Source of the DNA: Anaerolineae bacterium | GTDB lineage: Bacteria; Chloroflexota; Anaerolineae; S140-20 | Length of the DNA: 64,000 nt | Direction: 5' to 3' | Assembly (NCBI GenBank): GCA_027021705.1 | Contig: JALUTT010000048.1 | Coordinates: 64,001-128,000, forward strand | Part shown: piece after piece, positions 3,423-27,576 of the stretch | Numbering within the stretch: position 1 is the first letter of the stretch | Layout of the letters: each line of letters starts with the position of its first letter | Program-made: the position numbers and the translations under genes | Notes under the pieces: model-generated | Told to the model about the DNA's origin: nothing | Database searches by the model: none | The model's input: the letters and a program-made list of their open reading frames with translations, nothing else

Positions 3423-3509
3423 TGCGGTTCTCCTGGGCTTGCCAGCGTGGCGATCCGGCGGGTGGGGAGATCGCGGATTGACCCGGAGCACCGGAAGAAG
3501 GTACAGGGT

Positions 3510-5243: not shown

Positions 5244-5285
5244 GGTGACGAGGGCCGAGGGATGGGGTGAGGGGGAGCCACCGGT

Positions 5286-5358
5286 CGTCAACGAATGCGG
5301 GGAATGGGCCACCGCCGGCATCGGGCCTGTTCGTTTATTCGTTGGACATTCGTTGACG
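5286..5358. repeat. ~73-bp intergenic hairpin element (ACGAAT/ATTCGT family)
   Basis: cgtcaacgaatg (5286-5297) is the reverse complement of cattcgttgacg (5347-5358). A related element lies at 61175-61251. Confidence 0.7.
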
Positions 5359-5384
5359 GTGTACTATAGGAAGGGGAGACAACG

Positions 5385-6659: not shown

Positions 6660-6662
6660 GCG

Positions 6663-8933
6663 ATGGCTGAGCGACCCGCACGATCCCGCCGCCGGCGCAG
6701 TCTGGCACGGCGACTCGCCCAGGCCCTTGTCCTGACCACGGTGCTCCCGCTGCTGGTCGTGGGCGTGATGCTGGTCCTGGTCAGCCGTAATGTCCAGATC
6801 CAACACGTGATCGCCCTCCACCAGGAGATCGCCGAGGAGGCGGCTCTCACCATCTCGTCCTACTTGGACAACGCCGAGAACGTGCTAAGCGCCTTCGCCC
6901 ACACCCACGATCTCACGGCTCTGGACCTGCCCTCTCAGCAGTCTGCCCTGGAGGAGCTTCTGTTCAGCCAGCCGGATGTGTTTGAGGACCTGGCCCTGCT
7001 GGACCGCTCCGGTCGGGAGGTAGTGCGGGTTTCGCACTTCCACACCTTCTTGCCCGATGAGTTGGAGGACCGGGCCGAGACCGAGGCCTTTCAGCAGGCC
7101 ATCAAGGGCGAGGTTTACACGGCTGGGGAAGCCTACATCTCGCCCTACAGCTCCCTGCCGGTGATGACGATGGCGGTTCCCGTCCTTTCCGAGGCAGGTG
7201 AGCCTGTTGGCGTCCTGATCGCCGAGGTCAGCCTCAAGACGATGTGGGACACCGTGGCTCGTGTCCAGGCGGGGCTGGCCGGCTATGCCTATATTGTGGA
7301 CCGGTCGGGACACATTGTGGGGCACACGCGGGTGAGCCGCTACTTCCGGCTTCAAGAACGGGACCTGACCTTCATCCCGCTGGTCCGGGATCTGGTGGAG
7401 GGTCGGGAGCCGGTATCTCACCTCTACAAGGGGCTGGAGGGCGAGCGGGTCATCGGGGTTCTGGCACCCATTGAGGGTACCAATTGGGCGGTCGTCGTCG
7501 AGGTCCCCACCCGTGAGGCTTTCGCCAGCCTGCGGCGTATGGTCTACCTGTTCATCGGCACCCTGGTGGTAGCAGCGTTGATGGCCGGTGGGTTGGGGCT
7601 TCTGCTGCCCCGGCGCATCATCCGCCCACTCCGCCTGCTGCAGGAGGGCGCTGCGGCCATTGGGGCCGGACGGCTGGAGCACGTCATCCAAGTGCGGACC
7701 AACGACGAGCTAGAGGACCTGGCCGAGGCCTTCAACACGATGGCGGCCCGGCTGCAGGAGAGTCGGGCCCAACTGGAGCGCTGGGGCCAGGAGTTGGAAC
7801 GGCAGGTAGAGGAGCGGACGGCCGAACTGGCCGAGGCCTCGGAGCGCCTCCACCGCCGCGCCGACCAGCTTCAGGCCATCGCCGAGGTCGGGCGTGCCAT
7901 CACCCTGGTCAGTGACCTGGACCAGATGCTCACCCAGATCACCCAACGCATCAGCGAGCGCTTTGGCTTCTACCACGTGGGAATTTTCCTGCTAGACGAG
8001 GTGGGAGAGTACGCCATCTTGCGGGCGGCGAATAGCGAGGGGGGGCAACGGATGCTGGCCCGGGGGCACCGGCTGAAGGTGGGCGAGAAGGGCATCGTGG
8101 GCTACGTTACCAGCACTGGCGAGCCTCGTATCGCCCTCGATGTCGGTGAGGATGCCGTCTGGTTCGACAACCCAGACCTGCCCCTCACCCGCTCCGAGTT
8201 GGCCCTGCCCCTAAGGGTGGGTGGCGAGATCATTGGGGCCTTGGACGTGCAGAGCACCGAGGAGGCCGCGTTCACCGAGGAAGATGTCGCCGTGCTCAGC
8301 ATGCTGGCCGACCAGGTGGCCGTCGCCATCCAGAATGCCCGCCTGCTCGCCCGCACTCAGCAGGCCCTGGCCGAGGTGGAGGAGACCCATCGCCAGTACC
8401 TGCAGCGGGAGTGGCGGGAGATCACAGCCCAGCGCGGACCGTTGGTCTACGAGTACACCCGCGCCGGGACGCCTCCTGTGAGGGAAACCCTCCTTCCCGA
8501 GATGAAGCGGGCGATGGAGGAGGGCGAGGTCGTTGCCGTGCCCATCTCCGATGGGGATGGTGGGGATGGGGCGACCGCGGGATCGGCCTTGGCCGTCCCC
8601 ATCAAACTGCGAGGGCAGGTCATCGGTGTGATAGACCTGCAGGAGATTGGAGATGGTCGGCAGTGGACGGAGGAGGAGATCGCCCTCGTGCAAGCCATTA
8701 GCGATCAGATGGCCCTGGCAGCGGAAAACGTCCGCCTGTTGGAGGAGACGGAACGCCGTGCTGTGTGGGAGCATCAGGTCCAGGCGATCACCTCCAAGAT
8801 CCGCCGTTCGCCCGATCTGGCGACCATTCTCCAGACGGCAGTGGAAGAGTTGGGGCGGGTCCTGAGAGCCGACCGAGCCCTCGTTCGTCTGAGAGTAGAG
8901 ACTCCAGAGACGGACCAAGAGCTGGAGGAGTGA
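6663..8933 (+). CDS. TM, dCache, TM, HAMP, GAF, truncated GAF, half-GAF tail sensor
   Basis: Cache-like motifs YISPYSSLPVMTMAVPV and GYAYIVDRSGHIVGH; HAMP DELEDLAEAFNTM; conserved GAF AANSEGGQRMLARGH. Confidence 0.85.
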   Translation: MAERPARSRRRRSLARRLAQALVLTTVLPLLVVGVMLVLVSRNVQIQHVIALHQEIAEEAALTISSYLDNAENVLSAFAHTHDLTALDLPSQQSALEELLFSQPDVFEDLALLDRSGREVVRVSHFHTFLPDELEDRAETEAFQQAIKGEVYTAGEAYISPYSSLPVMTMAVPVLSEAGEPVGVLIAEVSLKTMWDTVARVQAGLAGYAYIVDRSGHIVGHTRVSRYFRLQERDLTFIPLVRDLVEGREPVSHLYKGLEGERVIGVLAPIEGTNWAVVVEVPTREAFASLRRMVYLFIGTLVVAALMAGGLGLLLPRRIIRPLRLLQEGAAAIGAGRLEHVIQVRTNDELEDLAEAFNTMAARLQESRAQLERWGQELERQVEERTAELAEASERLHRRADQLQAIAEVGRAITLVSDLDQMLTQITQRISERFGFYHVGIFLLDEVGEYAILRAANSEGGQRMLARGHRLKVGEKGIVGYVTSTGEPRIALDVGEDAVWFDNPDLPLTRSELALPLRVGGEIIGALDVQSTEEAAFTEEDVAVLSMLADQVAVAIQNARLLARTQQALAEVEETHRQYLQREWREITAQRGPLVYEYTRAGTPPVRETLLPEMKRAMEEGEVVAVPISDGDGGDGATAGSALAVPIKLRGQVIGVIDLQEIGDGRQWTEEEIALVQAISDQMALAAENVRLLEETERRAVWEHQVQAITSKIRRSPDLATILQTAVEELGRVLRADRALVRLRVETPETDQELEE

Positions 8934-9960: not shown

Positions 9961-10013
9961 CCCCATGAGTTGTCGTTTTGCCGGGAGTTGTACAACAAAA
10001 GGAGGCGCGGAAA

Positions 10014-11543: not shown

Positions 11544-11561
11544 GCATAGGAGAACCAGAAT

Positions 11562-14500
11562 ATGAGGGAGAGATTAGTAGAAGCGCTAACGGTCCAACCA
11601 GATGACCTGTTGCGGATCCGGCCATTGCTGGAAGTTATGCTTAAAGGGTTAATTGTGGCTACAGCGGCAGGTACGGTGGTTTTCGTTGGGGCTGCCGTGA
11701 TAGGTCAGCGTGGGTTCTGGGTGCTCAGCGGGCTTAACCTGCTTATGCTGATCGTGATGATTGGCATAGGGAGGCTGAACCAGCGAGGGCATACCAATGC
11801 GGCCATCCATACTCTGCTAGCAGTGATTACCCTTTACGTCACTGTAGCATCACCGCCGGGTTTCCTAGTGGCTGGACCGGAGCTAGCAGTCTATGCCGTA
11901 CCGATTACTGCTGCGGGGTTGCTGCTTACACCAGCGGCTGCGGGCTTCTGGGCGGTGATCACCACGATAGCCGCCTTGGCTCGCATGATAGTAGTCACCC
12001 TGTTCCTCGATGTGGTGGTCAGTCCCATAGCCCTCACCCTAGGGGTCATCGTGCTTTATTTGCTGGCCCTCTCCACCTGGCTCTTCGCCCGTTCCCTTCA
12101 GCAGGCCAACCGGAACCTGCGCCGGCGGATCGGGCAGATCCAGACGGGGGCCGAGATCAGCCGGGTGGTCACGGCAGCCCTCGAGCCCGGCCTGATCCAA
12201 TGGCCGGCCGTCCAGTTGATCCAGACCGGCTTCGGTTACTACCACGTCGGCTTCTACGTCCTCGACCCTGAAGGGCGTTGGGCCGTCCTCACGGAGGCGG
12301 CCGGCGAAGCTGCCGATCGTATGAAGCAGGAAGAGCATCGCCTGCCCTTGGACGGCTCTACCGTCGTCGCCGCCGCCTTCGCCCAACGGGCCCGCCAGAT
12401 GCTCGTCCTCGGCGAGGAAGGGCCATACAGCCCCAACGGACGCCCTCTTCAGCCCAACGATCGCTTCCTACCCCAGACCCGGGCGGAGTTGGCGCTGCCC
12501 CTCCAGGTGGGGGAGCGGCTCCTGGGCGTGCTGGATGTGCACAGCACCCAGCCTCTCCCCTTCCCCGACGAGGAGATCGAGGCCCTGGAGGGCATCGTGG
12601 GGCAGGTCGCCGTGGCCCTGGAGAATGCCCACCTCTTCGAGGACCTTCACCAACGCCACCAGGAGCTGCGGGAACTCCATCAGCAGACGGAGCGCCGGGC
12701 TCGCTACCTGGAGGCTACCGCCGAGTTGGCCCGGGCGGTCAGTTCGCTGCTCGATCTGCAAGCTCTGCTGGATCGGGCGGTTAACCTCATCAGCGAGCGG
12801 TTCGGCTTCTACCACGCCGGTATCTTCCTGGTGGACGAGGCCGGCGAGTGGGCCGTGCTCCAGGCGGCCAACAGCGAGGGCGGACAGCGTATGTTGGCCC
12901 GGGGGCACAAGCTGCGCGTGGGTGAGCAAGGCATCGTCGGCTGGGTCACCCACGCCGGAGAACCCCGCATTGCCCTGGACGTGGGTGAGGATGCCGTTCA
13001 CTTCGACAATCCCGACCTGCCCAACACCCGCTCGGAGATGGCTCTCCCCCTCAGGGTGGGAGACCGGGTGATCGGAGCCCTGGACATCCAGAGCACCCGA
13101 GAGGCCGCCTTCAGCGAGGAAGACGTGGCGGTCCTCCAGACTTTGGCCGACCAGATCGCCATCGCTATCGAGAATGCCCGCCTCTTCCAAGAGACCCAGA
13201 GGGCCCTGGAGGAGGTGCAGACCCTGCACCGCTACTACCTGGCCCAGGCGTGGGAGCAGTTCACCCGGCAGCGCAGAGACCTCAGCGCGGAATACCGCCG
13301 CCTGGGCGTGCCCCCTCTGGAGAGAGCGTGGTCTCCCGAAATGGAGATAGCCCTGGCTCAGGAGCGCCCTGTGGTCTTGACAGACCTGGAAGCGGAGCTA
13401 CTGGGCGGGGATGGACAGGAGGGGAATCGGGACGACGGAACCGATGGTCGCTCTGCGCTGCCGGCCCGTTCTGTCCTAGCCGTCCCCATCAAGCTGCGCG
13501 GCGAGGTAATCGGTGTCCTGGACTTGCAGGCGACAGAGGAGTCCCGCCGCTGGACCGACGAAGAGGTGGCGATGGTCGCCGCCGTGGCCGACCAGATGGC
13601 CCTGGCTCTGGAGAACGCCCGGCTTCTGGAGGCCGAGCGGGATCAGCGCCAAGTCTCCGAAGCGCTGCGGGAGGCCGCCGTGGCCCTGAGCAGCACCCTG
13701 GAGTTCGACGATCTGGTCCAACGCATCCTGGAGCAGATCAGCCGGGTCGTCCCCGGCGATGCCAGCAACCTGATGCTCATCGAGGGAGACGAGGTGCGGG
13801 TCGTGGGGCGCCGGGGTTACGAGCACTTCCAGTTTGTGGACCTCCTGCGTGAGCGCCGGGTTCCTCGGGATACCCTCAACACCCTGCGCAAGATGGCAGA
13901 GACAGGCCGTCCCGTCGTCATCCCGGACACGGCTTCCGATCCCGACTGGCGTCTCCTACCCGGTTCGGAGTGGATCCGCTCTTACGTGGGAGCGCCCATC
14001 CAGGTTCGGGGGGAGATCATCGGCCTCCTGAACGTGGATAGTGCGACACCGGGCTTTTTCACCCAGGAGCACGCTGACCGACTGGCGGCTTTCGCTGCCC
14101 AGGCAGGCATCGCCCTTCAGAACGCCCGGCTCTTCGAAGAGACCCGACGACACGCCCGTGAGGTCCGCCAGCTCTACCAGTTGGGTATGGCCCTTAGCGC
14201 CACCCTGGACCTGGAAGAAGCGCTCCAGACGGTGGCCGATGGGGCTCGGGAACTCCTCGAGGCGTCCAGCGCGGCGGTCTACTACTGGGATGAAGGGACG
14301 CAGCGTTACACCTACCGCTTTAGCCTGGGGGAGACTCACCTCGATGCCGAGGGCCTTTTCCAGGAACCCCGCCCCGGTGGGATGACCGAGACGATCCATC
14401 GTACGGGCGAGCCTGTCCTGGTCGAAGACGTCCGTCTGGATCCCCGGGTTGCCTCTCACGTCGTAGAGGCGGGGGTCCGCTCCTTCGTCGGCGTCCCCAT

Positions 14501-16373
14501 CCAGGTGGGCGGGCGTCGCATCGGTGTGGTCTTCGCCAATGGAGAGCAGCCCGGTCAGTTTGGCGAGCACGAGCAGAACCTGCTCACCTTCCTGGCCAGC
14601 CAGGCGGCCATCGCCTTGCAAAATGCCCGTCTCTTCGAGGAAGTCCAGACCCGCGCCCGCCACGAGCACGCCTTGCGCGAGATCACCGCGGTCATCAACA
14701 CCAGCGAGAGTTTGGTGGAGGAACTCCCCGTCATCGCCGGACACCTCCGGCAGTTGGTGCCCGTGGACACCCTCGCCCTGACCATCTACGTACCGGGGGA
14801 GTCCGAGTACACCCTCTTCGCCGTGGAGGTGAGCGGGGAAAGGACTCCCTTTGCCCAGAGGGGTGCCCGACTCCCGGTAGAGGGCACCGGCCCTGGGTGG
14901 GTCCTCACCCACGGCGAGCCGTGGATAGACGACGATCTCCGCCAGCAGCTTTCCTTTGTCGAGGATGAGCACGTCCTTGCCCAGGGATTGCGCTCCCGGG
15001 CGATCCTTCCCCTCCGGGTCGGCGAACGGGTCATCGGCACCCTCAACCTTGCCAGCACCCAGCCCGGGGTGTTTACCGAAACCGATCTTCCTCCCCTGCG
15101 GCTGATCGCCGGTCAGATGGCCCTGGCCCTGGAGCGGGTCCGCCTCTTCGAGGAGACTCAGCAGCGGGCCCGAGATCTGGACAAGCTCTACCAGGCGACG
15201 CGGGTCATCAGCACTGAACTGGACTTGGAGCCGCTGGCGGAGAAGCTGGCAGAAGAGGCTCGGAATCTGGTGGAGGCCCATTACAGCGGCATCCTGATCT
15301 TCCATCCCAATCCGGACCAGCCGGTCTATTTCAAGACGGCCGGCGTGGACCTCGATCGCTTCCAGTTGTCGGGTCGGCCCGAGGGCAAAGGGGTGTTGGC
15401 CGCCATCCTCGAGGGGGAGGCGGTCCGGCTGGACGACATCTCGAAGCACCCCCGTTCCGTCGGTCTGCCGCCGGAGCACTTCCCCCTCAAGCGGCTGTTG
15501 GGCTTGCCTATCGTCTACCACGGTCAGGTGCGGGGCATCTTGTTGGCAGGACGTGATGCCAATGGTGCTCCTTTCACCGAGGCGGACTTCTCCTTGCTCC
15601 AGGCTCTGGCAGCTTCGGCGGCCGTCGCCGTGGAGAATGCTCGGCTCTTCCTCAAGACCCAGGAGGCGTTGGCGGAGACGGAGGTTCTCTACCGGGCCAG
15701 CCGGGCCATCGCTGTGGCCCAGACGCCCGAGGACGTGTTGCGGGCCTTCACCGATCACATCGTCACACCGGAGATTGGCCGTTGCGTCCTGGCCCTGATA
15801 GATCCTGGCAGCCCGCCGGACCAACGGGAAGTAGAGATCGTCGCTGCGTGGGAGCCGGGGGTGGAACGACCGGCTGTGGTTGGAAACCGCTGGAACGCTT
15901 CTCAGATCCCCTTAATAGACCGGATCGGCCAGGATCCTCTGGTCATCTCCGACGTGGAGACCGCCTCAGAGATGGACGAGGTCTCCCGCCACATCTTCCT
16001 AGACATCCTGGGGATTAGGGCGTTCATCGCCATCCCCATGCTGGTCGGTGAGCGGCTGCTGGGCTGGCTGCTGGTCGAATCCCTGGAGGGGCCTTACGAG
16101 TTCAGCGAGCGGGAGAGGCGGCTCTACGAGGCCCTGGCCGGACAGGCTGCCGTCGCTCTGGAGCGCCAGCGTCTCTTCGAAGAGGCTCAGAGGCGGGCTC
16201 GCCGCGAGCGGCTGATCCGGGAGATCACCACCAAGGTGCGTGCCGCCACCGATGTGGACACGATCCTGCAGACCGCCCTTCAGGAGATCAGCCAGGCGTT
16301 AGGGACCACCCACGCGGCGATCCGCTTGGGAGTCCAAAGCCCAGAGTTTGGAAATGGAGGCTCGGAGAGGTAG
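11562..16373 (+). CDS. Large membrane sensor: ~6 TM plus 8 GAF units (one truncated) and half-GAF tail; no output domain
   Basis: Hydrophobic N-terminus, eight repeats ending in ENARLF-like motifs, C-terminus ITTKVRAATDVDTILQTALQEISQALGTTHAAIRL. Confidence 0.88.
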   Translation: MRERLVEALTVQPDDLLRIRPLLEVMLKGLIVATAAGTVVFVGAAVIGQRGFWVLSGLNLLMLIVMIGIGRLNQRGHTNAAIHTLLAVITLYVTVASPPGFLVAGPELAVYAVPITAAGLLLTPAAAGFWAVITTIAALARMIVVTLFLDVVVSPIALTLGVIVLYLLALSTWLFARSLQQANRNLRRRIGQIQTGAEISRVVTAALEPGLIQWPAVQLIQTGFGYYHVGFYVLDPEGRWAVLTEAAGEAADRMKQEEHRLPLDGSTVVAAAFAQRARQMLVLGEEGPYSPNGRPLQPNDRFLPQTRAELALPLQVGERLLGVLDVHSTQPLPFPDEEIEALEGIVGQVAVALENAHLFEDLHQRHQELRELHQQTERRARYLEATAELARAVSSLLDLQALLDRAVNLISERFGFYHAGIFLVDEAGEWAVLQAANSEGGQRMLARGHKLRVGEQGIVGWVTHAGEPRIALDVGEDAVHFDNPDLPNTRSEMALPLRVGDRVIGALDIQSTREAAFSEEDVAVLQTLADQIAIAIENARLFQETQRALEEVQTLHRYYLAQAWEQFTRQRRDLSAEYRRLGVPPLERAWSPEMEIALAQERPVVLTDLEAELLGGDGQEGNRDDGTDGRSALPARSVLAVPIKLRGEVIGVLDLQATEESRRWTDEEVAMVAAVADQMALALENARLLEAERDQRQVSEALREAAVALSSTLEFDDLVQRILEQISRVVPGDASNLMLIEGDEVRVVGRRGYEHFQFVDLLRERRVPRDTLNTLRKMAETGRPVVIPDTASDPDWRLLPGSEWIRSYVGAPIQVRGEIIGLLNVDSATPGFFTQEHADRLAAFAAQAGIALQNARLFEETRRHAREVRQLYQLGMALSATLDLEEALQTVADGARELLEASSAAVYYWDEGTQRYTYRFSLGETHLDAEGLFQEPRPGGMTETIHRTGEPVLVEDVRLDPRVASHVVEAGVRSFVGVPIQVGGRRIGVVFANGEQPGQFGEHEQNLLTFLASQAAIALQNARLFEEVQTRARHEHALREITAVINTSESLVEELPVIAGHLRQLVPVDTLALTIYVPGESEYTLFAVEVSGERTPFAQRGARLPVEGTGPGWVLTHGEPWIDDDLRQQLSFVEDEHVLAQGLRSRAILPLRVGERVIGTLNLASTQPGVFTETDLPPLRLIAGQMALALERVRLFEETQQRARDLDKLYQATRVISTELDLEPLAEKLAEEARNLVEAHYSGILIFHPNPDQPVYFKTAGVDLDRFQLSGRPEGKGVLAAILEGEAVRLDDISKHPRSVGLPPEHFPLKRLLGLPIVYHGQVRGILLAGRDANGAPFTEADFSLLQALAASAAVAVENARLFLKTQEALAETEVLYRASRAIAVAQTPEDVLRAFTDHIVTPEIGRCVLALIDPGSPPDQREVEIVAAWEPGVERPAVVGNRWNASQIPLIDRIGQDPLVISDVETASEMDEVSRHIFLDILGIRAFIAIPMLVGERLLGWLLVESLEGPYEFSERERRLYEALAGQAAVALERQRLFEEAQRRARRERLIREITTKVRAATDVDTILQTALQEISQALGTTHAAIRLGVQSPEFGNGGSER

Positions 16374-16454
16374 TCCCGGAGTCCTCGTCCTGGTGTGGTG
16401 AGCCGAGGACAAGAGTAGGAAGTTCAGAGTTCTGAGGTACAGGTGAGGGGAAAA

Positions 16455-19400
16455 ATGGCCGACTCAACCCACTCAGCCCACCCACAAGACCTCCTCGACC
16501 GGCTCCTGTCCATCGTCGCTGGGATAGACGAGGGGGAGCAGCGTGAGGCCCTGCAGCAGCCGTTGGAGGCGCTGCGGAAGGCGCTTGCCGTCTCCTCGGA
16601 TCGGAGCCGTCGCCTCTACGAGGCCAGTCGGGCGATCAGCCTGGCCGCCGATATGGCTGAGGTGGGACGGGCTCTGATGGACTTCATCGCGACCTGTGAC
16701 GTGGATGTGGGCCGGCTCTTTCTCTTCCGGGCGGATCCGTCTGGTGAGCCGGTTGAGATCGAGATGCGCGAGGGATGGAAGCGGAGCGGTGAGCCCTCTC
16801 AGGTTCCCTACGGCACCCGTTTCCCGCTGGCCGATTACCCTCTGCGTGAGGCTATGCAGCCTGACCAGGTCTTCATCTGCTCCGATGTGGGGACGGATCC
16901 CCGGTTGAATGAGACCATCCGGGCGATGATGCTCGCCTCCGAACTGCACTCCTTCATCATCGTCCCGATGACGGTGGAGAGGCGGTGGTTGGGTGCCATT
17001 CTCGTAGGACGGGAGGTCCCCTCCACGTATGATGAAGGGTTGGTCTACGCCCTCTGGACGCTGGCCGGACAGGCTGCGGCCACGCTGGAGAACCGCCAGC
17101 TCCTGGCCGACTTCCAAGGAACAGCCGAGCAGATGGTCCTGCTCAACCAAATCCTCCAGACGGCTACGACGACCCTAGACCTCCGGGAGGCCCTCGATTC
17201 CATTGCCCGACAGACGGCCCTGGCGCTGAACAGGATGTGCGGCATCTTTCTTCTCGAGGAAGATGGCGAGCACCTGCGGGTGGGCTGCTTGTGGGGACCC
17301 GATGGCCATACCCACACGTCTGAGGAGGCCCTCGTCTTCCCTCTCTCAGAGAATCCCGGTATGGAGGCAGCCGTTCGGGAGCAGAAGACCCAGGTCCTTG
17401 ACCAGGTTCAGACCCGTGCCCGGGGAACAGCCCGCCACCTGGCCCAACTCTCCCGGGCGGAGACGGCCGTCTACGCCCCCTTGCTGACCCGAGAGCGTGT
17501 GGTGGGGGTGCTGGAGGTCTCCGCCCCCGTCGGCCATCCCCCCTTCACGCCGGAGCAGATCGGCACGGTCTCCACCATTGCCCGCCAGATGGGTATCGTG
17601 GTGCAGAATGCTCGACTCTTCCAGGAAACCCAGGCCGCTCTGGAGGAGACAGACCTGCTCCTGGAGACCAGCCGGGCCCTGGCCCTCGCCCTGACCCCCC
17701 AGGAGGTGGCCGATCTCCTGGCAGAGCGCTTGATGGCCACAGGCGTTGACCGTTGTAGCGTGGTTCTCTGCGATACCTACGGAGAGGATGGGCTCCCTCA
17801 GTGGGCGGAGGTGATGGCCATCGGCGACGTGGACCCGGAGAGGCGAAAGCTGGGCCTGCACTACCGCTATCCCATCGAAACCTACCCTACGATACAGAAG
17901 TTCCTCCGTGCTCCAGAAGCCTTCGTGGTGACCGATGTGCGCACCGATCCCCGCCTCACCGAGGAGGAGCGAATCTATATGGAAAATATCGGGGGGGTGG
18001 CTTTCATCGCCGTCCCGATGGTGCGCCGGGGACAGGTCCTGGGCTACATCTTCGCCGAACACAGCCATCCCTATACCTTCAGTCAGCGGGAGCTTTCCCT
18101 GTACCAGGCGATGGCCGATCAGGCAGCCGTGACGCTGGCCAACATGCGTCTCTTCGAGCGGGTTCAGCAAGGGTGGCGCGAGACCGAGGTCCTCTATCAG
18201 GTTGGCCGCTCCTTGGTCGCTGCCTCTTCCTTGGAGGAACTGCTGGAGTGTGCGGCCCAACCGGCCATCGAGGCAGGGGCGTCGGCCGCCAGCCTCTACC
18301 TCTTCGACCCGAATGAGGCGGAGCAACCGGAGTGGGGCATCCTGGCCGCCCACTGGCAGCGCGAGGGTGATCCTCCCTTCCCCGTGGGTACTCGGCTCTA
18401 CTTGGCCGATTTCCCCTTCACCCAGCTCTTCCTGGCGGATCCCCAGACCCCTTACCTGATCGGGGATATGGAGGCGGCCGAGCAGGTGGATGAGACTACC
18501 CGGGATGTGGCCCTGCAACTGGGGGTGCGAGCGCTGGTTGTCATCCCCTTGGTGACCCGGGAGCGTCGGATTGGTATCCTGGCCATTCCCTGGGATGAGC
18601 CCCACCAATTCAGTGAGGAAGAGGAGCGGCTCTATCGGGCGCTGGGACCGTTGGCAGCGCCGGTCACGGAGAGCTTGCGCCTACTGGAGGACACACGGCG
18701 TCGGGCACTCCAGTTCCAGACCGTGACGGAGGTTGCCCAGGCGGCCAGTACCATCCTGAACCTGGATGAGTTGCTCTCCCAGTCGGTGGAGTTGATCAGG
18801 GAGCGCTTTGACCTCTACTATGCCGGTATCTTCCTGGTGGATGAATACGGGCAGTGGGCGGTGCTGCGGGCGGGCACCGGCGAGGCCGGCCGGGCGCAGA
18901 TCGAGGCCGGTCACCGGCTGGAGGTGGGGGGCAACTCGATGATCGGCTGGTGCACGGCCCACGGAAAGCCCCGGGTAGCCCTAGACGTGGGGAAGGAGGC
19001 CGTGCGCTTTGAGAACCCCTACCTGCCCGATACCCGCTCGGAGATGGCCCTGCCCCTCATCAGCCGGGGGCAGGTGATCGGTGCGATGACCATCCAGTCC
19101 ACCCAGGTCGCTGCCTTCACCGACGAGGATGTCACAATCCTCCAGGCTCTGGCCGACCAGTTGGCCGCGGCCATTCAGAATGCCCGTCTCTTCGAGCAGA
19201 CCCAGCAGGCCCTGCAGGAGGTCAGCCGGGTTCACCAGCGTTACATCCGTGAGGCCTGGGAGGAGTACACAGCCCATCGTCAGCGTCCGACAGGCTACTT
19301 CCTGGGCCCCGACGGCATCACGGCTGCCGACGTCTGGCGACCGGAGATGGCCTTGGCGGTGGAGCGGGAGGACCTGCTGATCCTCTCCGAGGCCGACGAC

Positions 19401-22400
19401 GAAGTAGTTGGCGGGAAGAACGGAGATGAACGCCCCAAGGCAGCCCTGGCTGTGCCCATTAAGCTGCGCGATCAGGTGATCGGGGCGCTGGACTTCTTCG
19501 AGCCCGATGAGGCCCGGGAATGGGATGAGGATGACATCGCCATCGTAGAGGCGGTGGTGGATCAGGTTGCCCAGGCTCTGGAGAGCGCCCGCCTCTTCGA
19601 GAAAACCCAGACCCAGGCCAGCCGGCTGGCCCTCCTGAACGAGATCACAGCCCGCCTGAGCACGGCCCTGGATCGGGATGAACTCTTCCGTATCTTGAGT
19701 CAGGAACTGGGCCGCATCCTTCCTTTCCACCAGCTCCACATCGCCCTCTACGACCCTCAGCGGGATTCCGAGCACTGCCGGCTGATCCCTCTAGGGAAGG
19801 AAGCCTTCCACGCGGTGCAGACCTTCCCCGTCGAGGATAGCCTGATGGGAGAGGTGTTGCAGAGCGGTCGTCCTCTGTTGTTGAAAGACCTCGCCCTCTC
19901 GTCGGAAGAGATGGGGTCGAACCACCAAGACCGCCGCTATCTCCTCCAGACGGGCGTTCGCTCGGCGATCTTCGTCCCCCTGGGAACCCATGGGCGCCAA
20001 CTAGGGGTGCTGAGCGTGGGCCATGCAGAGGCCGGCTTCTACACCCAGGATGACCTGGCCCTCTTCCAGCAGGTTGCTGCTCAGGTGGCCGTTGCCCACG
20101 AGAACGCCCGCCTCTTCCACGAGACGCGGCGTCGGGCCCGTCAGTTGCAGGACCTCTACGATGCCGGGCTTGCCCTCTCCTCCATCGCCTCGCTGGAGGA
20201 GGTGATGGAGCGGGTTGCTCAAGCGGCTCAGAAGCTGACCCAGGCCAGCCTGACCACGGTCTTCGTCTACGATGAGGACCTGGGTCGCTATCGTCGGGCC
20301 GCCGCGGCCGACGCGCCGGAGCGGCTGGCCTCCTCGCCGGTCATCTACCCCCGTCGGGGAGGCTTCACCGACAAGATCGCCCGCAGCGGTCGCCCCCTCG
20401 TCGTCCCCGATGTCGAGGCCGATCCCGACGTGAACCCGGGTGCTCTGGAGTCGGGGATGCACTCCCTGGTGGGAATTCCGATGCAGATGATGGGACAGGA
20501 GGCCATCGGGGTCATCTTCTGTGCCCATACCGAGAAGCATTACTTCACCGAGGAGCACGTGGAGACCCTCTCCTTCCTGGCCGTCCAGGCGGCGATCGCG
20601 CTGCAGAACGCCCGATCCTTCGCCCAAGTGGAACGCCGGCGGCTGCAACTGGAGACCGCGGCCGAGGTCGCCCGGGTGACCACCGCCGTTCTGGACCTGG
20701 ACGAGCTGCTGGAGCGGACGATCAGCCTGCTCCAAGAGCGGTTTGGCCTCTACTATGCGGGCATCTTCCTGCTGGACGAGACGGGGTCGTGGGCGGTGTT
20801 GCGGGCCGGAACCGGAGAGGCTGGTCGTCGGATGGTGGAGCGTGGACACCGGCTGCAGGTAGGCGGCAATTCGATGATCGGCTGGTGCACGGCCCATGGA
20901 GAGCCCCGCGTGGCCCTGGACGTGAGCAAGGAACGGGTGCGCTTCATCAACCCGCTGTTGCCCGACACCCGCTCGGAGATGGCCCTGCCCCTCATCAGCC
21001 GGGGGCGGGTGATCGGCGCGATGACCATCCAGTCCGATCAGACCGAGGCCTTCTCCCGGGCCGACGTCGCCACCATCCAACTGATGGCCGACCAGTTGGC
21101 CAACGCCATCGAGAACGTCCGGCTCTTCCAGGAGACCCAGACCAGCCTGGTGGAGACCGAGGCCCTCTATCGGGCCAGCCGGCGGGTGGGGGAGGCCCAG
21201 TCCATCGAAAGCGTCCTAGAAGGTGCGGCAGAGTTGGCCGAGGTTCTGATCCCGGAGGCCGGCAGCATCTCCATCAGCCTGATTACCCGCTGGGACGAGG
21301 CCGGAGAGCCGACGGCTGCCGACATTCACGTCCTCTCCCTGGGCACGGGCCAGCGGATCCCGCTGCCGACCCTCACCGATTTTCCCATCACCGATCGGGA
21401 GACGGCGAGGATGGTCCTGGGCGAGCCCGAAGCAGTCGTCATCTACGCCGATGCCGACGATCCCACCTGTTCTATGCCCGAGGAGGTGCGGGAGGTGATG
21501 CACAACAGCGGCACCCGGGGAATGGTCACGCTGGGCCTGCTCGCCCGAGGCCGCTCCTTGGGATTCCTCTCCTTCAGCAGTTCGGCGCCACTCACCGAGT
21601 TCCCGGAACGTCACGTCCGGCGTCTCCGCACCCTGGCCGACCAGATCGCGGTGACCCTGGACAACCTGCAGCTCTTCCGGCAGACTACGGAGGCGCTGGA
21701 AGAGACCCAGACCTACTATGACATCAGCCGGCAACTGCTGGAGGCCCAGACGGTGGAAGAGGTGCTGGCGGCTGCGCTGGCCTTTCTGCAGGAGCCGGAT
21801 GTGGACAGTGCCAGCATCTTCCTGGTGGGTGGACCGCCGGAGGCCCTATGGCTGGAGCGGGTTGCGGTCAAGGGCATTCGGGAGAGGACCGAAGCCCCGC
21901 TGGGCGATCGGATCCCGATGGACCTGTATGGACTAGATCGCCTGCTCGCTCCCGGTCGTACGGTTGTGGTCGAGGATGTGGCCCGCGATACCCGGATTAC
22001 GGAGCCGCTGCGGGAGATGTTGACAGAGTTGGGAAAGCGGGCCGTCGTCTTCGTGCCGATGCAGACGGGGCAGCAGCTGGTAGGGACTTTGCTGGTTGCC
22101 CAAAACTATCCCTACCGCTTCTCCAAACGTCAGATCCGGCTCTACGAGGTTGTGGCGGCCCAGACATCGGTAGCCTTGGAGAACCGGCGCCTGCTGGAGG
22201 AGACCCGACGGCGGGCCGTCCAGTTGGAGGCAGCGGCCAAGGTGGGGCGTTCGGCCACCTCCATCCTGGAGCGCGAGCAACTGCTGCCGGCCGTCGTCGA
22301 GTTGATCCGCGACCACTTCGGCTACTACCACGCTCAGATCTTCCTGATAGACGAGACGGGGCGGTGGGCGGAACTCCAGGCCAGCACCGGTGAGATCGGC

Positions 22401-24242
22401 AGGATATTGCTGGAGCGAGGACATGCTCTGGAGGTGGGCAGCGACTCGGTGATCGGCTGGGTGACCCGTTATGGGCAGCCCCGCGTCGCCCGCGTGGGCG
22501 AGGACCGGGTTCACTTCCGCAACGAACTCCTGCCTGATACCCGGGCCGAGTTGGCCATCCCTCTCATCCTGGGAGGCCGCGTCATCGGAGCCTTGGATGT
22601 GCAGAGCACCGACCCCGAAGCTTTCGGCGAGGACGAGGTCGCGGTGCTTCAACTCGTGGCGGACCAGATCACCATCGCCATCGAGAACGCTCGCCTCTAC
22701 GACGAGCAGAAGCGGGTGGCCGAGAAGCTGCGCGAGGTGGATCGGCTGAAGTCTCAGTTCCTGGCCAATATGTCCCACGAGTTGCGGACACCGCTGAACT
22801 CCATCATCGGCTTCTCGCGGGTGATCCTCAAGGGCATTGATGGTCCCCTCACCGACCTGCAGCGGCAAGACCTGGAAGCGATTCACAACAGTGGTCAACA
22901 CCTGCTAGGGTTGATCAACGACATCCTGGACCTCTCCAAGATCGAGGCAGGTCGGATGGAGCTGGTCTTCGAGGAGGTCAACCTCTACGACATCATCGAA
23001 GGCGTGATGGCGACGGCCAAGGCGCTGGTCAAGGACAAGTCCATCGAGCTGCGCAAGGAAGTTGCCGAGGACCTGCCGACCATTATCGCCGACGGCAAGC
23101 GGATCCGTCAGGTGATGCTCAACCTGCTCTCCAATGCGGCCAAGTTCACCGAAGAGGGATACATCTGCTTGCGAGCCCAGGCCGACGACCGCTACGTGAC
23201 CATCAGCATCGAGGACACCGGGATCGGTATCCCGCCGGAGAAGCACGAGGAGATCTTCCAGGAGTTTACCCAGGTGGATGCCTCTACGACACGCCGTTAC
23301 GCGGGAACGGGCCTGGGGCTGCCCATCAGCCGCCACTTCGTCGAGATGCACGGCGGGCGGATCTGGGTGGAGAGCGAACTGGGGAAGGGTTCGACCTTCT
23401 ACTTCACGCTGCCCATCCGTGGACCCAAGCAGGAGGAGGAGCCTTCTGAGGGCGAGGGTGTGGCCGTAGAGGTGGGGAAGAAGCTGATCCTGGTGGTAGA
23501 TGACGACGAGAGCGTCATCACCCTCTACAAGCGCTATCTGGACAAGCGTGATTACCAGGTCGTTGGCCTGACAGAGAGTCAACAGGCACTCCAGTGGGCG
23601 ATGAACCTGAAGCCCTATGCCATCATCCTGGACATCCTAATGCCGCGCAAGGATGGCTGGAGTGTAATCCAGGAATTGAAGTCCACGCCGGAGACCCGGG
23701 ACATTCCCGTGATCATCTGCAGCATCGTGGGTGATACCGGTCGGGGCTTCAGCTTGGGGGCTGCTGACTACTTGGTCAAGCCGATTATGGAAGACGAACT
23801 GCTCAATGCGCTGTCCCGGCTAGACGGACAAGCCCAAGAGAAAGTCCTGATCATTGACGACAACCCTGACGACATCCAGTTGCTGCGCCGCATCCTGGAG
23901 GAGGGGCAGGGGTGCATGGTGCTGGAGGCCAGCAACGGTGCTGACGGCATCGCCCTGATCCAGGCCGAGCGTCCTAATCTGGTCATCTTGGACTTGATGA
24001 TGCCGGAGGTGGATGGCTTCGCCGTGTTGGAGGCGGTTAAGGCCAATCCCTCTACTCGGGATATCCCTATCATCGTGGTGACGGCGAAGGACCTCTCCGA
24101 AGAGGATCGCCAACGGCTTGCAGGACGCACCATCTCTCTGTTGCAGAAAGGGATCTTTCAGCAGGAGGAGCTGCTCGAGGATGTGGCTGAGGCTTTGGCC
24201 CGGTTGACGGCTAACCAATCCCGGTCCCAAGAGCAGGCGTAG
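16455..24242 (+). CDS. Giant cytoplasmic hybrid histidine kinase: 12 GAF units, HisKA, HATPase, two REC
   Basis: H-box FLANMSHELRTPLNSIIG; N-box NLLSNAAKFT; G1 DTGIGI; G2 GTGLGL; REC motifs DILMP and DLMMP. No TM segment evident. Confidence 0.95.
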   Translation: MADSTHSAHPQDLLDRLLSIVAGIDEGEQREALQQPLEALRKALAVSSDRSRRLYEASRAISLAADMAEVGRALMDFIATCDVDVGRLFLFRADPSGEPVEIEMREGWKRSGEPSQVPYGTRFPLADYPLREAMQPDQVFICSDVGTDPRLNETIRAMMLASELHSFIIVPMTVERRWLGAILVGREVPSTYDEGLVYALWTLAGQAAATLENRQLLADFQGTAEQMVLLNQILQTATTTLDLREALDSIARQTALALNRMCGIFLLEEDGEHLRVGCLWGPDGHTHTSEEALVFPLSENPGMEAAVREQKTQVLDQVQTRARGTARHLAQLSRAETAVYAPLLTRERVVGVLEVSAPVGHPPFTPEQIGTVSTIARQMGIVVQNARLFQETQAALEETDLLLETSRALALALTPQEVADLLAERLMATGVDRCSVVLCDTYGEDGLPQWAEVMAIGDVDPERRKLGLHYRYPIETYPTIQKFLRAPEAFVVTDVRTDPRLTEEERIYMENIGGVAFIAVPMVRRGQVLGYIFAEHSHPYTFSQRELSLYQAMADQAAVTLANMRLFERVQQGWRETEVLYQVGRSLVAASSLEELLECAAQPAIEAGASAASLYLFDPNEAEQPEWGILAAHWQREGDPPFPVGTRLYLADFPFTQLFLADPQTPYLIGDMEAAEQVDETTRDVALQLGVRALVVIPLVTRERRIGILAIPWDEPHQFSEEEERLYRALGPLAAPVTESLRLLEDTRRRALQFQTVTEVAQAASTILNLDELLSQSVELIRERFDLYYAGIFLVDEYGQWAVLRAGTGEAGRAQIEAGHRLEVGGNSMIGWCTAHGKPRVALDVGKEAVRFENPYLPDTRSEMALPLISRGQVIGAMTIQSTQVAAFTDEDVTILQALADQLAAAIQNARLFEQTQQALQEVSRVHQRYIREAWEEYTAHRQRPTGYFLGPDGITAADVWRPEMALAVEREDLLILSEADDEVVGGKNGDERPKAALAVPIKLRDQVIGALDFFEPDEAREWDEDDIAIVEAVVDQVAQALESARLFEKTQTQASRLALLNEITARLSTALDRDELFRILSQELGRILPFHQLHIALYDPQRDSEHCRLIPLGKEAFHAVQTFPVEDSLMGEVLQSGRPLLLKDLALSSEEMGSNHQDRRYLLQTGVRSAIFVPLGTHGRQLGVLSVGHAEAGFYTQDDLALFQQVAAQVAVAHENARLFHETRRRARQLQDLYDAGLALSSIASLEEVMERVAQAAQKLTQASLTTVFVYDEDLGRYRRAAAADAPERLASSPVIYPRRGGFTDKIARSGRPLVVPDVEADPDVNPGALESGMHSLVGIPMQMMGQEAIGVIFCAHTEKHYFTEEHVETLSFLAVQAAIALQNARSFAQVERRRLQLETAAEVARVTTAVLDLDELLERTISLLQERFGLYYAGIFLLDETGSWAVLRAGTGEAGRRMVERGHRLQVGGNSMIGWCTAHGEPRVALDVSKERVRFINPLLPDTRSEMALPLISRGRVIGAMTIQSDQTEAFSRADVATIQLMADQLANAIENVRLFQETQTSLVETEALYRASRRVGEAQSIESVLEGAAELAEVLIPEAGSISISLITRWDEAGEPTAADIHVLSLGTGQRIPLPTLTDFPITDRETARMVLGEPEAVVIYADADDPTCSMPEEVREVMHNSGTRGMVTLGLLARGRSLGFLSFSSSAPLTEFPERHVRRLRTLADQIAVTLDNLQLFRQTTEALEETQTYYDISRQLLEAQTVEEVLAAALAFLQEPDVDSASIFLVGGPPEALWLERVAVKGIRERTEAPLGDRIPMDLYGLDRLLAPGRTVVVEDVARDTRITEPLREMLTELGKRAVVFVPMQTGQQLVGTLLVAQNYPYRFSKRQIRLYEVVAAQTSVALENRRLLEETRRRAVQLEAAAKVGRSATSILEREQLLPAVVELIRDHFGYYHAQIFLIDETGRWAELQASTGEIGRILLERGHALEVGSDSVIGWVTRYGQPRVARVGEDRVHFRNELLPDTRAELAIPLILGGRVIGALDVQSTDPEAFGEDEVAVLQLVADQITIAIENARLYDEQKRVAEKLREVDRLKSQFLANMSHELRTPLNSIIGFSRVILKGIDGPLTDLQRQDLEAIHNSGQHLLGLINDILDLSKIEAGRMELVFEEVNLYDIIEGVMATAKALVKDKSIELRKEVAEDLPTIIADGKRIRQVMLNLLSNAAKFTEEGYICLRAQADDRYVTISIEDTGIGIPPEKHEEIFQEFTQVDASTTRRYAGTGLGLPISRHFVEMHGGRIWVESELGKGSTFYFTLPIRGPKQEEEPSEGEGVAVEVGKKLILVVDDDESVITLYKRYLDKRDYQVVGLTESQQALQWAMNLKPYAIILDILMPRKDGWSVIQELKSTPETRDIPVIICSIVGDTGRGFSLGAADYLVKPIMEDELLNALSRLDGQAQEKVLIIDDNPDDIQLLRRILEEGQGCMVLEASNGADGIALIQAERPNLVILDLMMPEVDGFAVLEAVKANPSTRDIPIIVVTAKDLSEEDRQRLAGRTISLLQKGIFQQEELLEDVAEALARLTANQSRSQEQA

Positions 24243-24244
24243 GT

Positions 24245-24300
24245 CCCCGCCGAGGTGGGAAAGGATAGCATCGTTGTGCTTCCACCCCGCCGAGGTGGGA
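24245..24300 (+). repeat. 16-bp direct repeat x2 (ccccgccgaggtggga)
   Basis: Exact copies at 24245-24260 and 24285-24300 in the kinase/PLP-enzyme intergenic region. Confidence 0.8.
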
Positions 24301-24362
24301 TCTACCGGCAACTGGACCTTATCCCCCAAAAGTGCGCGCGGAAGGAAGGAGTCAAAGAAGCC

Positions 24363-26027
24363 ATGGGCAAGAATCACTTTTGGCTGAAGTGCCCGCAATG
24401 CGGCCATCGTTTCCTCTACAAAGGGCTCGTAACAGCCTGCCCTCGTTGCAGCCACGCCTGGCTGGACGTCGAGTACGATTACGACGCTCTGGCCCCCCGT
24501 CTGCGCCAACTGTTGGAGAGCCGCCCCTTTACCAGCATGTGGCGGTATCGGGAACTGCTCCCGGTGCTCCACGACGAGAACATCGTGACGATGGGGGAAG
24601 GCGGAACACCGCTGCTCCACAGCCAGCATCTGGGAATGATGCTAGGGCATCCCTACATCTACGTGAAGGACGAACGGCAGGGACCGACGGGCTCCTTTAA
24701 GGATCGTCAGGCTTCCCTGGCTATCTCCCTTATGAAGGAGAACGGGATCACAGAGGGTGTATTGGCTTCGACGGGCAATGTTGCCATCTCCTACTCCGCC
24801 TACTCAGCCCTGGCCGGCATCAAGCTCTGGGCCTTTGTCACCAGCACGGTGCCGGCCGACAAGATGCGCGAGGTTGCCCTCTATGGCACGGAGGTGATCA
24901 AGGTTACGGCGACCTACGATCAGACCAAGGAAGTGGCGGCCCGCTTTGCTCAGCACAAAGGGCTCTACCTGGATCGAGGCATCCGCGCTTTTGCCAGCCG
25001 ACAAAGTATGAAGACCATCGCCTACGAGATCGCTGAGCAGTTGGGCTGGCGGGCCCCCGACTGGTACATCCAGGCCGTCAGCGGGGGCCTCGGCCCTGTC
25101 GGCGTCTGGCAGGGCTTCGAGGAACTCTACCGGATGGGGCTGATCCCCAACCTGCCCAAGCTGGCCAGCATCCAGGTGACCGGCTGCGCCCCGATGGTCC
25201 ATTCCTTCCGCAAGGGGCTGGCCGAGGTGGAGCCCGTGCTCAACCCGCAGACCCTCATCGCTACGGTGGCGACGGGTAATCCAGGACCGGCCTATCCCTT
25301 CCTGCGGCGCGTCGTGCTGGAGCACGGAGGGGCCTTCGAAGAGGTCACCGACGAAGAAGCGTTCCGGGCGATGCGGGTGATGGCCCGAATGGAAGGGCTT
25401 TCTATGGAACCGGCTGCCGCTATGGCTTTCGCCGGTCTCTTCAAGCTGATCCAGAAGGGGATCATCCGTAAGGATGAGATCGTCGTCGTCAACTGCTCGG
25501 GTCACACCTTTCCCGTGGAGAAGCACCTGCTGGACGAGGAGTGGGTCCACAGCCTGGAACTGCCCTCGGAAATGGTCGCCGAGCCAGGGCCGGCTGTTCT
25601 AAAGGAAGAGGGGCTTCTGGCCTCGCTGGAACGGCTGGACGACCGGGTGCGGAGTGTGGCCATCATTGACGATGAGCCCGATGCCGTCCGCCTGCTGCGG
25701 CGGATCATCCAGGCCAAAGGCGGCTACCAGATCTACGAAGCCTATGATGGTCGCCAGGGCCTCCAGCTCATCCGCGAGAAGCGGCCTGACCTGGTGCTGC
25801 TGGACCTGATGATGCCGGGGATGGACGGCTTTGCCGTCCTGACGGCGATGAAGGAGGACCCTCAGATCGCGACCATCCCGGTGATCGTCATCACGGCCAA
25901 GGACCTGACCACTCAGGAACGGCGTTGGTTAAGCGGGAAGGTGGAGTCCCTGCTGCAGAAAGGATCCTACATGGACCTGGATGCCCTGGATGCGCTGGTT
26001 GGCGAGCTCTCGACGGCGGTAGGCTGA
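24363..26027 (+). CDS. Threonine-synthase-like fold-type II PLP enzyme fused to a C-terminal receiver domain
   Basis: CPQC..CPRC ribbon; GEGGTPL; PLP-lysine motif PTGSFKDR; ASTGN; EPAAA; then REC IIDDEPD..LLDLMMPGMDG..ITAKD. Confidence 0.88.
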   Translation: MGKNHFWLKCPQCGHRFLYKGLVTACPRCSHAWLDVEYDYDALAPRLRQLLESRPFTSMWRYRELLPVLHDENIVTMGEGGTPLLHSQHLGMMLGHPYIYVKDERQGPTGSFKDRQASLAISLMKENGITEGVLASTGNVAISYSAYSALAGIKLWAFVTSTVPADKMREVALYGTEVIKVTATYDQTKEVAARFAQHKGLYLDRGIRAFASRQSMKTIAYEIAEQLGWRAPDWYIQAVSGGLGPVGVWQGFEELYRMGLIPNLPKLASIQVTGCAPMVHSFRKGLAEVEPVLNPQTLIATVATGNPGPAYPFLRRVVLEHGGAFEEVTDEEAFRAMRVMARMEGLSMEPAAAMAFAGLFKLIQKGIIRKDEIVVVNCSGHTFPVEKHLLDEEWVHSLELPSEMVAEPGPAVLKEEGLLASLERLDDRVRSVAIIDDEPDAVRLLRRIIQAKGGYQIYEAYDGRQGLQLIREKRPDLVLLDLMMPGMDGFAVLTAMKEDPQIATIPVIVITAKDLTTQERRWLSGKVESLLQKGSYMDLDALDALVGELSTAVG

Positions 26028-26048
26028 GCCCGGAGAGACGGCACGGTA

Positions 26049-26135
26049 GAACGCGGGGTAGTGGCTCATCTCCATCGGACAGTCAGCGGGGTTGGTTCCC
26101 CCGGCCGATGGGATGGGCCGACTACCCCGTTGTTC
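26049..26135. repeat. Long imperfect stem-loop at the end of the signalling cluster
   Basis: gaacgcggggtagtggctcatctccatcgg pairs imperfectly with ccgatgggatgggccgactaccccgttgttc. Confidence 0.6.
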
Positions 26136-26140
26136 TTGCC

Positions 26141-26169
26141 TTGACACTCCTCGCTTCTTCCCTTACAAT
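26141..26169 (+). promoter_or_regulatory. Sigma70-type promoter for the R-M genes
   Basis: TTGACA (26141-26146), 17 bp, TACAAT (26164-26169). SD aggagg precedes GTG 26221. Confidence 0.75.
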
Positions 26170-26220
26170 TCCATCGGCTGCAGGGAGCCCTTCCAGGGCC
26201 GATGAAGCAGGAGGTTCCTA

Positions 26221-27573: not shown

Positions 27574-27576
27574 ACG

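Follow-up and report, generated by a model that had tools for sequence, protein, structure and literature searches.

The question raised by this locus is why an enzyme of the threonine synthase (ThrC) type should end in a receiver domain (REC), and whether the histidine kinase encoded beside it is its partner. The locus lies in a stretch of 64,000 nucleotides from an Anaerolineae bacterium (contig JALUTT010000048.1, positions 64,001 to 128,000 of the forward strand), the whole of which is called the window below, and its central gene occupies window positions 24363..26027 on the + strand. We favour, with a probability of about 0.7, the reading that the product of this gene is a response regulator with a specialised ThrC-like output dependent on pyridoxal 5'-phosphate (PLP), which would receive its phosphate directly from the multi-GAF kinase next to it and whose metabolite would be handled by a transporter of the EamA family. 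An environmental signal would then probably act straight on an amino-acid reaction rather than on a gene. The gene and the parts of its product are the following.

24363..26027, + strand: gene of the ThrC-like PLP enzyme with a C-terminal receiver, 554 aa (open reading frame, translation, Pfam)
24384..24455, + strand: N-terminal zinc ribbon, C10/C13/C26/C29, CPQC...CPRC (translation)
24585..25496, + strand: PALP catalytic domain, residues 75-378, with the Schiff-base lysine K113 (PF00291, E 4e-64)
25497..25532, + strand: family-specific motif SGHTFPVEKHLL, residues 379-390, in the place of the ThrC tail TGHGLKDP
25650..26006, + strand: receiver, Pfam residues 432-534, full extent 430-548, phospho-acceptor D481 (PF00072)

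The gene stands in an intact open frame (24255..26027, + strand), its ATG at 24363 has GGAGG about 10 nt on the 5' side, and the closest homologue (P0004, 97% identity) is also 554 aa long. The receiver scored 78.9 bits with PF00072 (E 4.2e-22, cut-off 30.2) and 188.9 bits with a REC profile built in this analysis. The AlphaFold model of the enzyme has a mean predicted local distance difference test score (pLDDT) of 82.9 and a predicted template modelling score (pTM) of 0.71; residues 381-392 are below 50 in pLDDT, and the SGHTFPVEKHLL segment is left disordered.

Conservation was followed in a family alignment of 56 sequences with 50-73% identity to the query, to which the counts out of 56 refer, and in a larger set of 121 sequences. 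The receiver is C-terminal to PALP in all 56 aligned members (residues 430-548 of 554 here). Its residues D437, D481 and K533 are invariant (56/56), and at T511 the larger set has T in 85% or more of its sequences; the features by which a response-regulator receiver is recognised, namely acidic pocket, phospho-acceptor Asp, T/S and Lys, are all kept. In the catalytic half, K113, S136-T137-G138-N139 and S240-G-G-x-G-P are invariant (56/56), as are C275 and H381...E386, and the glycine-rich loop 240-245 and S379 are conserved in the family. Within the SGHTFPVEKHLL segment G380, H381, T382, P384, E386 and L390 do not vary (56/56), and in the zinc ribbon C29 is invariant and C10, C13 and C26 are retained in at least 90% of the 56 sequences. 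As judged from these residues, the PLP site is intact and the receiver is equipped with every residue needed for phosphorylation. Because catalytic and receiver residues are both conserved, both halves of the fusion are under selection for function.

The candidate partner is the kinase gene on the 5' side, separated from the enzyme gene by a spacer of 120 bp.

16443..24242, + strand: hybrid histidine kinase of 2599 aa with about 12 GAF domains, HisKA, HATPase_c, REC1 and REC2 (Pfam)
23487..23813, + strand: kinase REC1, residues 2349-2457, a separate REC lineage (Pfam)
23838..24194, + strand: kinase REC2, paralogous to the enzyme REC (47% identity), residues 2466-2584

In BLASTP comparisons the enzyme REC shared 47% identity over 139 aa with kinase REC2 (E 5e-33), far more than chance would give, and 30% over 80 aa with REC1. 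Among 71 tblastn REC hits genome-wide, self included, kinase REC2 was the best non-self match (114 bits, the next being 89.7). The likeness can also be read from short motifs: the enzyme carries GSFKDR, DLMMPGMDGFAVL, IPVIVITAKDLT and SLLQKG, and the kinase DLMMPEVDGFAVL, IPIIVVTAKDLS and SLLQKG. The alpha-1 helix is the main partner-recognition surface of receivers. LLRRI is common to this helix of the enzyme (PDAVRLLRRII) and of REC2 (PDDIQLLRRIL), and REC1 has ESVITLYKRYL. A REC tree was built from 57 domains, taken from the window, from 20 related regions and from nine other RECs of the same genome. Kinase REC1 rows formed a clade of their own (support 91/88), and enzyme RECs and kinase REC2s came together in a 32-row group (support 81/88) with the nine other genome RECs outside; the exception was the kinase REC2 row of one region (L133), on a long branch just outside this group. 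From this grouping it follows that the REC2 likeness is an old paralogy retained in many genera. A recent intragenomic duplication was considered as its source and rejected; the split in the tree predates the divergence of the sampled genera.

The pair itself is widespread. All of the best 120 matches listed (62-97% identity) have PALP and REC, some of them named as Anaerolineae or Chloroflexi bacteria, and a search of the ESM Atlas returned only PALP plus REC clusters of the fusion family. The fusion is present in 81/301 genomes sampled from the class (65/217 high-quality genomes; 45/176 genera) and in 40/401 genomes sampled from the phylum, eight of those outside the class. Of 20 regions of about 20 kb around the fusion gene, 18 have the kinase core immediately before that gene on the same strand, and one (L134) has it downstream. 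Among 29 further loci with flanks of 1.5 kb, the kinase core was found upstream in 26, mostly with 58-75% identity to the window kinase; two of the remaining three show upstream RECs only, and there the kinase may sit beyond the flank. Kinase and enzyme genes thus form an orthologous pair that is kept in many genera. A motif search of related contigs caught the generic REC motif MMPGMDGF, and 1/80 of the loci kept was a full-length relative (L006, 47%).

Receivers have also moved within the pair. When 17 neighbouring kinases were scanned, nine had REC1 and REC2, four had REC1 only and four had no REC. With the REC-less kinase of L125 the enzyme bears two RECs, and the same holds in L135, where the kinase was seen by tblastn only; with those of L127 and L143 a stand-alone REC gene lies 3' of the enzyme gene; in the REC-less cases L128 and L132 there is neither a second enzyme REC nor a separate REC gene. 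Since RECs move among these neighbouring genes, the proteins are functionally tied. A side observation concerns the loci L125 and L143 of a paralogous clade, in which the kinase is non-hybrid: the fusion gene is closely followed by another PALP gene, this one unfused (L125:6755-8374, L143:9402-10580); the one in L125 (genome G070) is PRK08197-like.

Phosphate could reach the enzyme directly or by a relay through a histidine phosphotransfer (HPt) protein. The window holds no HPt gene, and the sole PF01627 match of the genome is on another contig (C34). PF01627 had no match in 6/10 related genomes that bear the module, although divergent phosphotransferases could escape the Pfam model. It was unmatched in 4/5 genomes with a REC-less kinase (94-97% complete) and in 2/5 with a hybrid kinase, one of these a single contig rated 99% complete. 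Where a REC-less kinase occurs in a genome without HPt, phosphate can only pass directly, and we infer the same route here; direct His-to-Asp transfer would thus be the likeliest route. The genome's only HPt gene (106 aa) comes last in a separate operon on contig C34 (L138:6837-11413), after a stand-alone REC and a three-GAF histidine kinase.

An earlier note on this DNA, made from the letters alone, had described a PLP lysine motif (GSFKDR) with a C-terminal REC close to the second REC of the kinase, had taken the enzyme for a phosphorylation-gated output of that kinase, and had seen no HPt gene in the window. Translation and Pfam confirm the motif and the domain, and the receiver likeness and the missing HPt gene have stood up as reported above. 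The role as kinase output is supported by the orthologous GAF-HisKA-HATPase kinase upstream in 18/20 and 26/29 loci. Gating agrees with the invariance of D437, D481 and K533; phosphotransfer and REC-dependent activity are predicted.

The next question is which reaction the enzyme performs. In sequence and fold it is closest to class I threonine synthases: the best solved relative is 2zsj (E 1.5e-49), solved relatives share 30-33% identity, and in a Foldseek search with the AlphaFold model ThrC structures took ranks 1-12 (template modelling score by target 0.81-0.84), the cysteate synthase CapA2 following at rank 13. This closeness speaks for a true threonine synthase, converting O-phosphohomoserine to threonine under two-component control, which could tune for example the supply or export of threonine. 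So do the intact PLP- and carboxylate-binding residues, and the LeuA allosteric domain found on 3/20 relatives fits feedback-controlled amino-acid synthesis. However, the enzyme falls below the cut-off of every curated NCBIfam model for ThrC and for cysteate synthase. The best NCBIfam model, NF006050 / PRK08197, which spans the zinc ribbon through PALP, gave 262.3 bits against a cut-off of 303, TIGR00260 gave 163.6 against 167.1, and four further ThrC models were far under their cut-offs; the cysteate synthase model TIGR03844 gave 119.8 against 324.9.

The substrate site argues in the same direction. Three mappings of the residues agree: phmmer against two solved ThrCs, MAFFT, and hhalign (probability 100, 376 columns). 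Five ThrC positions are replaced as follows, with the count among the 56 aligned family members.

T88 of Thermus ThrC: V140 in the enzyme, 55/56
N154 of Thermus ThrC: R205 in the enzyme, 43/56
S155 of Thermus ThrC: G206 in the enzyme, 56/56
R160 of Thermus ThrC: A212 in the enzyme, 52/56
N188 of Thermus ThrC: G241 in the enzyme, 56/56

These five positions are invariant in seven canonical-type sequences, a comparison that is partly circular, as 6/7 were chosen by motif. The ThrC motifs NSxNPxRxEGQKT, VGNAGN and TGHGLKDP are absent from all 56 family members; where the family has SGHTFPVEKHLL, GLKD stands in canonical ThrC and in most other relatives. Moreover, the superfamily is represented in this genome by three further proteins, on contigs C145, C20 and C107: a canonical thrC (302.1 bits), a PRK08197 member (618 bits) and an intermediate member, respectively. 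A canonical thrC is also present in 4/5 other fusion-bearing genomes (297-331 bits); the fifth, G070 (97% complete), has no TIGR00260 match over the cut-off, which favours a true threonine synthase. Finally, an unfused relative (P0148) is encoded in an operon with NeuB, DegT and glycosyltransferase genes, not in a threonine pathway. Taken together, a true threonine synthase under two-component control is unlikely, and by sequence the enzyme is a separate paralogue and not the housekeeping ThrC. The possibly non-canonical product proposed in the earlier note is thus supported by the model scores, the replaced residues and the canonical thrC on contig C145, a separate thrC of the kind that the note had advised looking for.

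A transporter gene is also associated with the fusion. An EamA-family gene adjoins the fusion gene in 8/20 regions, co-directional in seven, and these EamA neighbours are orthologous (38-78% identity). Counted over the 301 genomes of the class sample, the two genes occur together or apart as listed here.

Fusion and EamA both present: 70 of 301 genomes
Fusion only: 11 of 301 genomes
EamA only: 15 of 301 genomes
Neither gene: 205 of 301 genomes

In 42/70 genomes with both, the two genes lie at most 1.5 kb apart on one contig, as taken from coordinates. This co-occurrence is an association, not proof. NCBIfam models gave no substrate clue for the EamA neighbours, the only match being the generic TIGR00950, far below its cut-off.

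According to the response-regulator reading, the phospho-histidine of the kinase would pass its phosphate directly to D481 of the enzyme REC. Kinase REC2, the old paralogue with the same recognition helix, would compete for or buffer phosphate, and REC1 would likewise be an internal competitor or buffer. Once D481 is phosphorylated, the C-terminal REC would pair differently or shift, and this change, via the conserved SGHTFPVEKHLL/linker segment, would switch the PLP domain on or off. The reaction would be other than the standard conversion of O-phosphohomoserine to threonine, and is probably a beta- or gamma-elimination or replacement on an amino acid with an anionic leaving group. The co-occurring EamA transporter probably moves the product or the substrate. 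It is a tentative and rather doubtful extension that sensor array, kinase, enzyme and EamA form a signal-gated factory for a non-proteinogenic amino acid, made and exported or imported and converted, with phosphorylation of the enzyme as its on/off switch. The product of such a factory could serve as an intercellular signal or an antimetabolite of filamentous Anaerolineae. The whole would be a new class of two-component output, with PLP chemistry under direct control, and would bring a new reaction to the ThrC superfamily.

The logic could also run in reverse, the REC being a phosphate sink or modulator and the PLP domain a metabolite sensor whose ligand state alters the rate at which the REC gains or loses phosphate, with the true kinase output elsewhere. 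The paralogous REC2 of the kinase is consistent with several RECs competing for one phosphodonor, the window is without a DNA-binding regulator, and REC-only sinks occur in other systems. However, the catalytic PLP residues are all invariant, which would be needless in a mere binding domain; EamA is the only other protein conserved beside the kinase, where no other output protein is found; and loci with a REC-less kinase still have the fusion. This arrangement is improbable. Least probable, and very much so, is a receiver that serves structure or dimerisation only and never takes phosphate, with a constitutive enzyme whose proximity to the kinase means co-expression only: its C-terminal position and poorly modelled linker would suit it, but pseudo-receivers usually lose key phosphorylation residues, and here D437, D481 and K533 are invariant (56/56), T511 is conserved, and the kinase pairing and REC2 kinship are maintained over many genera.

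Several observations weigh against the response-regulator reading favoured here. The REC comes after the output domain, which is not the order of most response regulators, and linker residues 381-392 and 400-419 are of low confidence in the model, which gives no structural basis for coupling. A hybrid kinase with RECs classically implies a His-Asp-His-Asp relay, and the kinase here has two RECs, no HPt nearby and one HPt gene elsewhere in the genome. One of the 20 regions (L121) shows no kinase within 9 kb; in its taxonomic family the fusion occurs in 10/10 sampled genomes, and the kinase check covered L121 alone. The EamA orthologue of this genome (64% identity to that of L116) is on contig C97, outside the window. 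A search for sequencing runs with this DNA gave 8 rows from 6 studies that contain it in full or in part, one of them possibly its source, and none was an RNA run. The genomes are related by descent and not independent, so that co-occurrence counts overstate the support. As to the substrate site, T88, N154, S155, R160 and N188 are reportedly the ligands of the substrate phosphate in ThrC, after work by Omi et al. (J Biol Chem, 2003). A212 is followed by an Arg or Lys at position 213, which could replace R160.

Comparison with known systems shows what would be new. Two-component systems are textbook gene switches, and their known enzymatic outputs serve mostly chemotaxis or second messengers, as in the CheB methylesterase, the diguanylate cyclases PleD and WspR, and RpfG. 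Like CheB and PleD, the fusion puts a phosphorylatable REC and an enzyme in one polypeptide beside a histidine kinase gene, and control would be post-translational, not transcriptional; unlike them, its REC is C-terminal and not N-terminal, and its output is a PLP-dependent amino-acid enzyme. Class I ThrCs (2ZSJ of Aquifex; 1UIM/1V7C of Thermus; 2D1F of M. tuberculosis; 6CGQ/6NMX of B. subtilis) have the same fold and PLP chemistry. The fusion enzyme retains the lysine of SFKDR, the carboxylate loop ASTGN and the EPA motif, but has SGGxGP for GNAGN and SGHTFPVEKHLL for TGHGLKDP, and adds the zinc ribbon and the C-terminal REC. NF006050 / PRK08197 zinc-ribbon proteins are alike in ribbon and PALP, but the fusion enzyme is under their cut-off and in its own subclade, which has QxVSGGxGP and DxG and no GLKD tail.

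Appended control of such enzymes is familiar in another form. Plant threonine synthase is activated by S-adenosylmethionine, and IlvA and cystathionine beta-synthase have C-terminal regulatory domains. Like these regulated fold-type II PLP enzymes, the fusion has a PALP core with an added regulatory domain (plant ThrC 2C2B is at fold rank 5), and the LeuA-allosteric, PadR and DinB_2 domains of its relatives occupy the same C-terminal position as its REC; unlike them, it would respond to phosphorylation by a sensor kinase rather than to the binding of a metabolite. Cysteate synthase (TIGR03844; CapA2, 9K3C), which is ThrC-derived, has a zinc-ribbon N-terminus and turns a phospho-amino acid into a different product, shows that the ThrC fold can change reaction, but the fusion enzyme differs from it, with 22% identity, a score far under the model and Foldseek rank 13 as given above. 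No description of a ThrC/PALP-receiver fusion was found in the literature, although response-regulator censuses in subscription journals could mention one.

If the reading is true, signalling acts directly on primary or specialised metabolism, and a new reaction is probably to be added to the ThrC superfamily. Anaerolineae are abundant in sediments, digesters and vents, and the system offers a handle on their unexplored sensory biology. The large fusion family also supplies sequence variation that can be used for the design of experiments.

The catalytic half belongs to a wider family. An exhaustive search with it, of which the best 150 matches were listed, gave fused representatives (552-715 aa) at the top by score, next a few proteins without a fusion (374-435 aa, 43-51% identity), which have QxVSGGxGP and DxG but not the GLKD tail, and then a wide range of ThrC-like proteins with a zinc ribbon, about 35% identical. 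The fusion family and the few unfused relatives form their own subclade. When 20 relatives were scanned for domains, two had REC, three LeuA allosteric, three PadR and one DinB_2; one had an N-terminal inositol monophosphatase domain and ten had PALP alone. Regulatory domains added at the C-terminus thus recur in the clade. The relatives at about 35% with LeuA, PadR, DinB_2 or inositol monophosphatase fusions (P0165, P0172, P0174, P0223, P0231, P0245, P0257, P0268) make up, as far as their predicted domains tell, a group of ThrC-like enzymes, regulated or bifunctional, that has received little notice. Ten clusters of unfused relatives are named only 'threonine synthase' or are nameless. P0148, a member of the unfused subclade on a metagenome contig (L139:34-5624), lies within a tight operon of a glycosyltransferase, NeuB, a 406-aa protein without assignment, the ThrC-like gene and a DegT aminotransferase. 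Its gene content suggests a role in modifying a nonulosonic-acid-type sugar and, though in one case only, speaks against threonine synthesis.

The remaining neighbours of the kinase and enzyme genes in the window are mostly sensory.

13..8933, + strand: co-directional sensor array (Pfam on five open reading frames)
13-1698, 1695-3422, 3447-5243, 5385-6659 and 6663-8933, + strand: open reading frames of the array (Pfam)
11562..16373, + strand: membrane protein of 1603 aa with 8 GAF domains and without kinase or other output domain (Pfam)
24245-24259 and 24285-24299, + strand: exact repeat of CCCCGCCGAGGTGGG in the spacer between kinase and enzyme genes, two copies at a distance of 40 bp

The repeat CCCCGCCGAGGTGGG has two exact matches in the window and five with at most two mismatches, and shuffles average 1.29. 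No terminator-like site was found in 24000-26400, the gap between kinase and enzyme genes included. On the 3' side of the enzyme gene, where many relatives have EamA, the window has a restriction-modification pair (26141-28818) in a region of lower G+C (0.573 in 26001-28000): one partner, of 450 aa, matches N6_N4 methylase weakly, and the other is a BsoBI-like endonuclease of 413 aa. A strong promoter-like site (11 of 12) lies between the pair and the enzyme gene at 26141-26169, and with this site of its own the pair looks like a separate unit. It may be an insertion that broke the EamA synteny.

The array comprises HAMP-GAF, PAS-GAF and MASE11-GAF proteins, a Peripla_BP_6 binding protein and a dCache-HAMP-GAF protein, and further same-strand genes upstream encode one protein without domain assignment and one prenyl-cyclase-like protein. 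Within the array, 9978-11543 encodes a 521-aa protein with a repeat like the C-terminal part of squalene-hopene cyclase, and this gene is in the stretch of lowest G+C in the window (0.541 in 10001-12000). Five output-less GAF proteins (13-1698, 1695-3422, 3447-5243, 6663-8933, 11562-16373) have in common a C-terminal tail of about 45 aa with the pattern RRAxRExL..I..IR...D...IL.TA..E...ALG....RL, and the kinase ends differently. This tail resembles the start of one more GAF domain, cut short after its first helices and strand.

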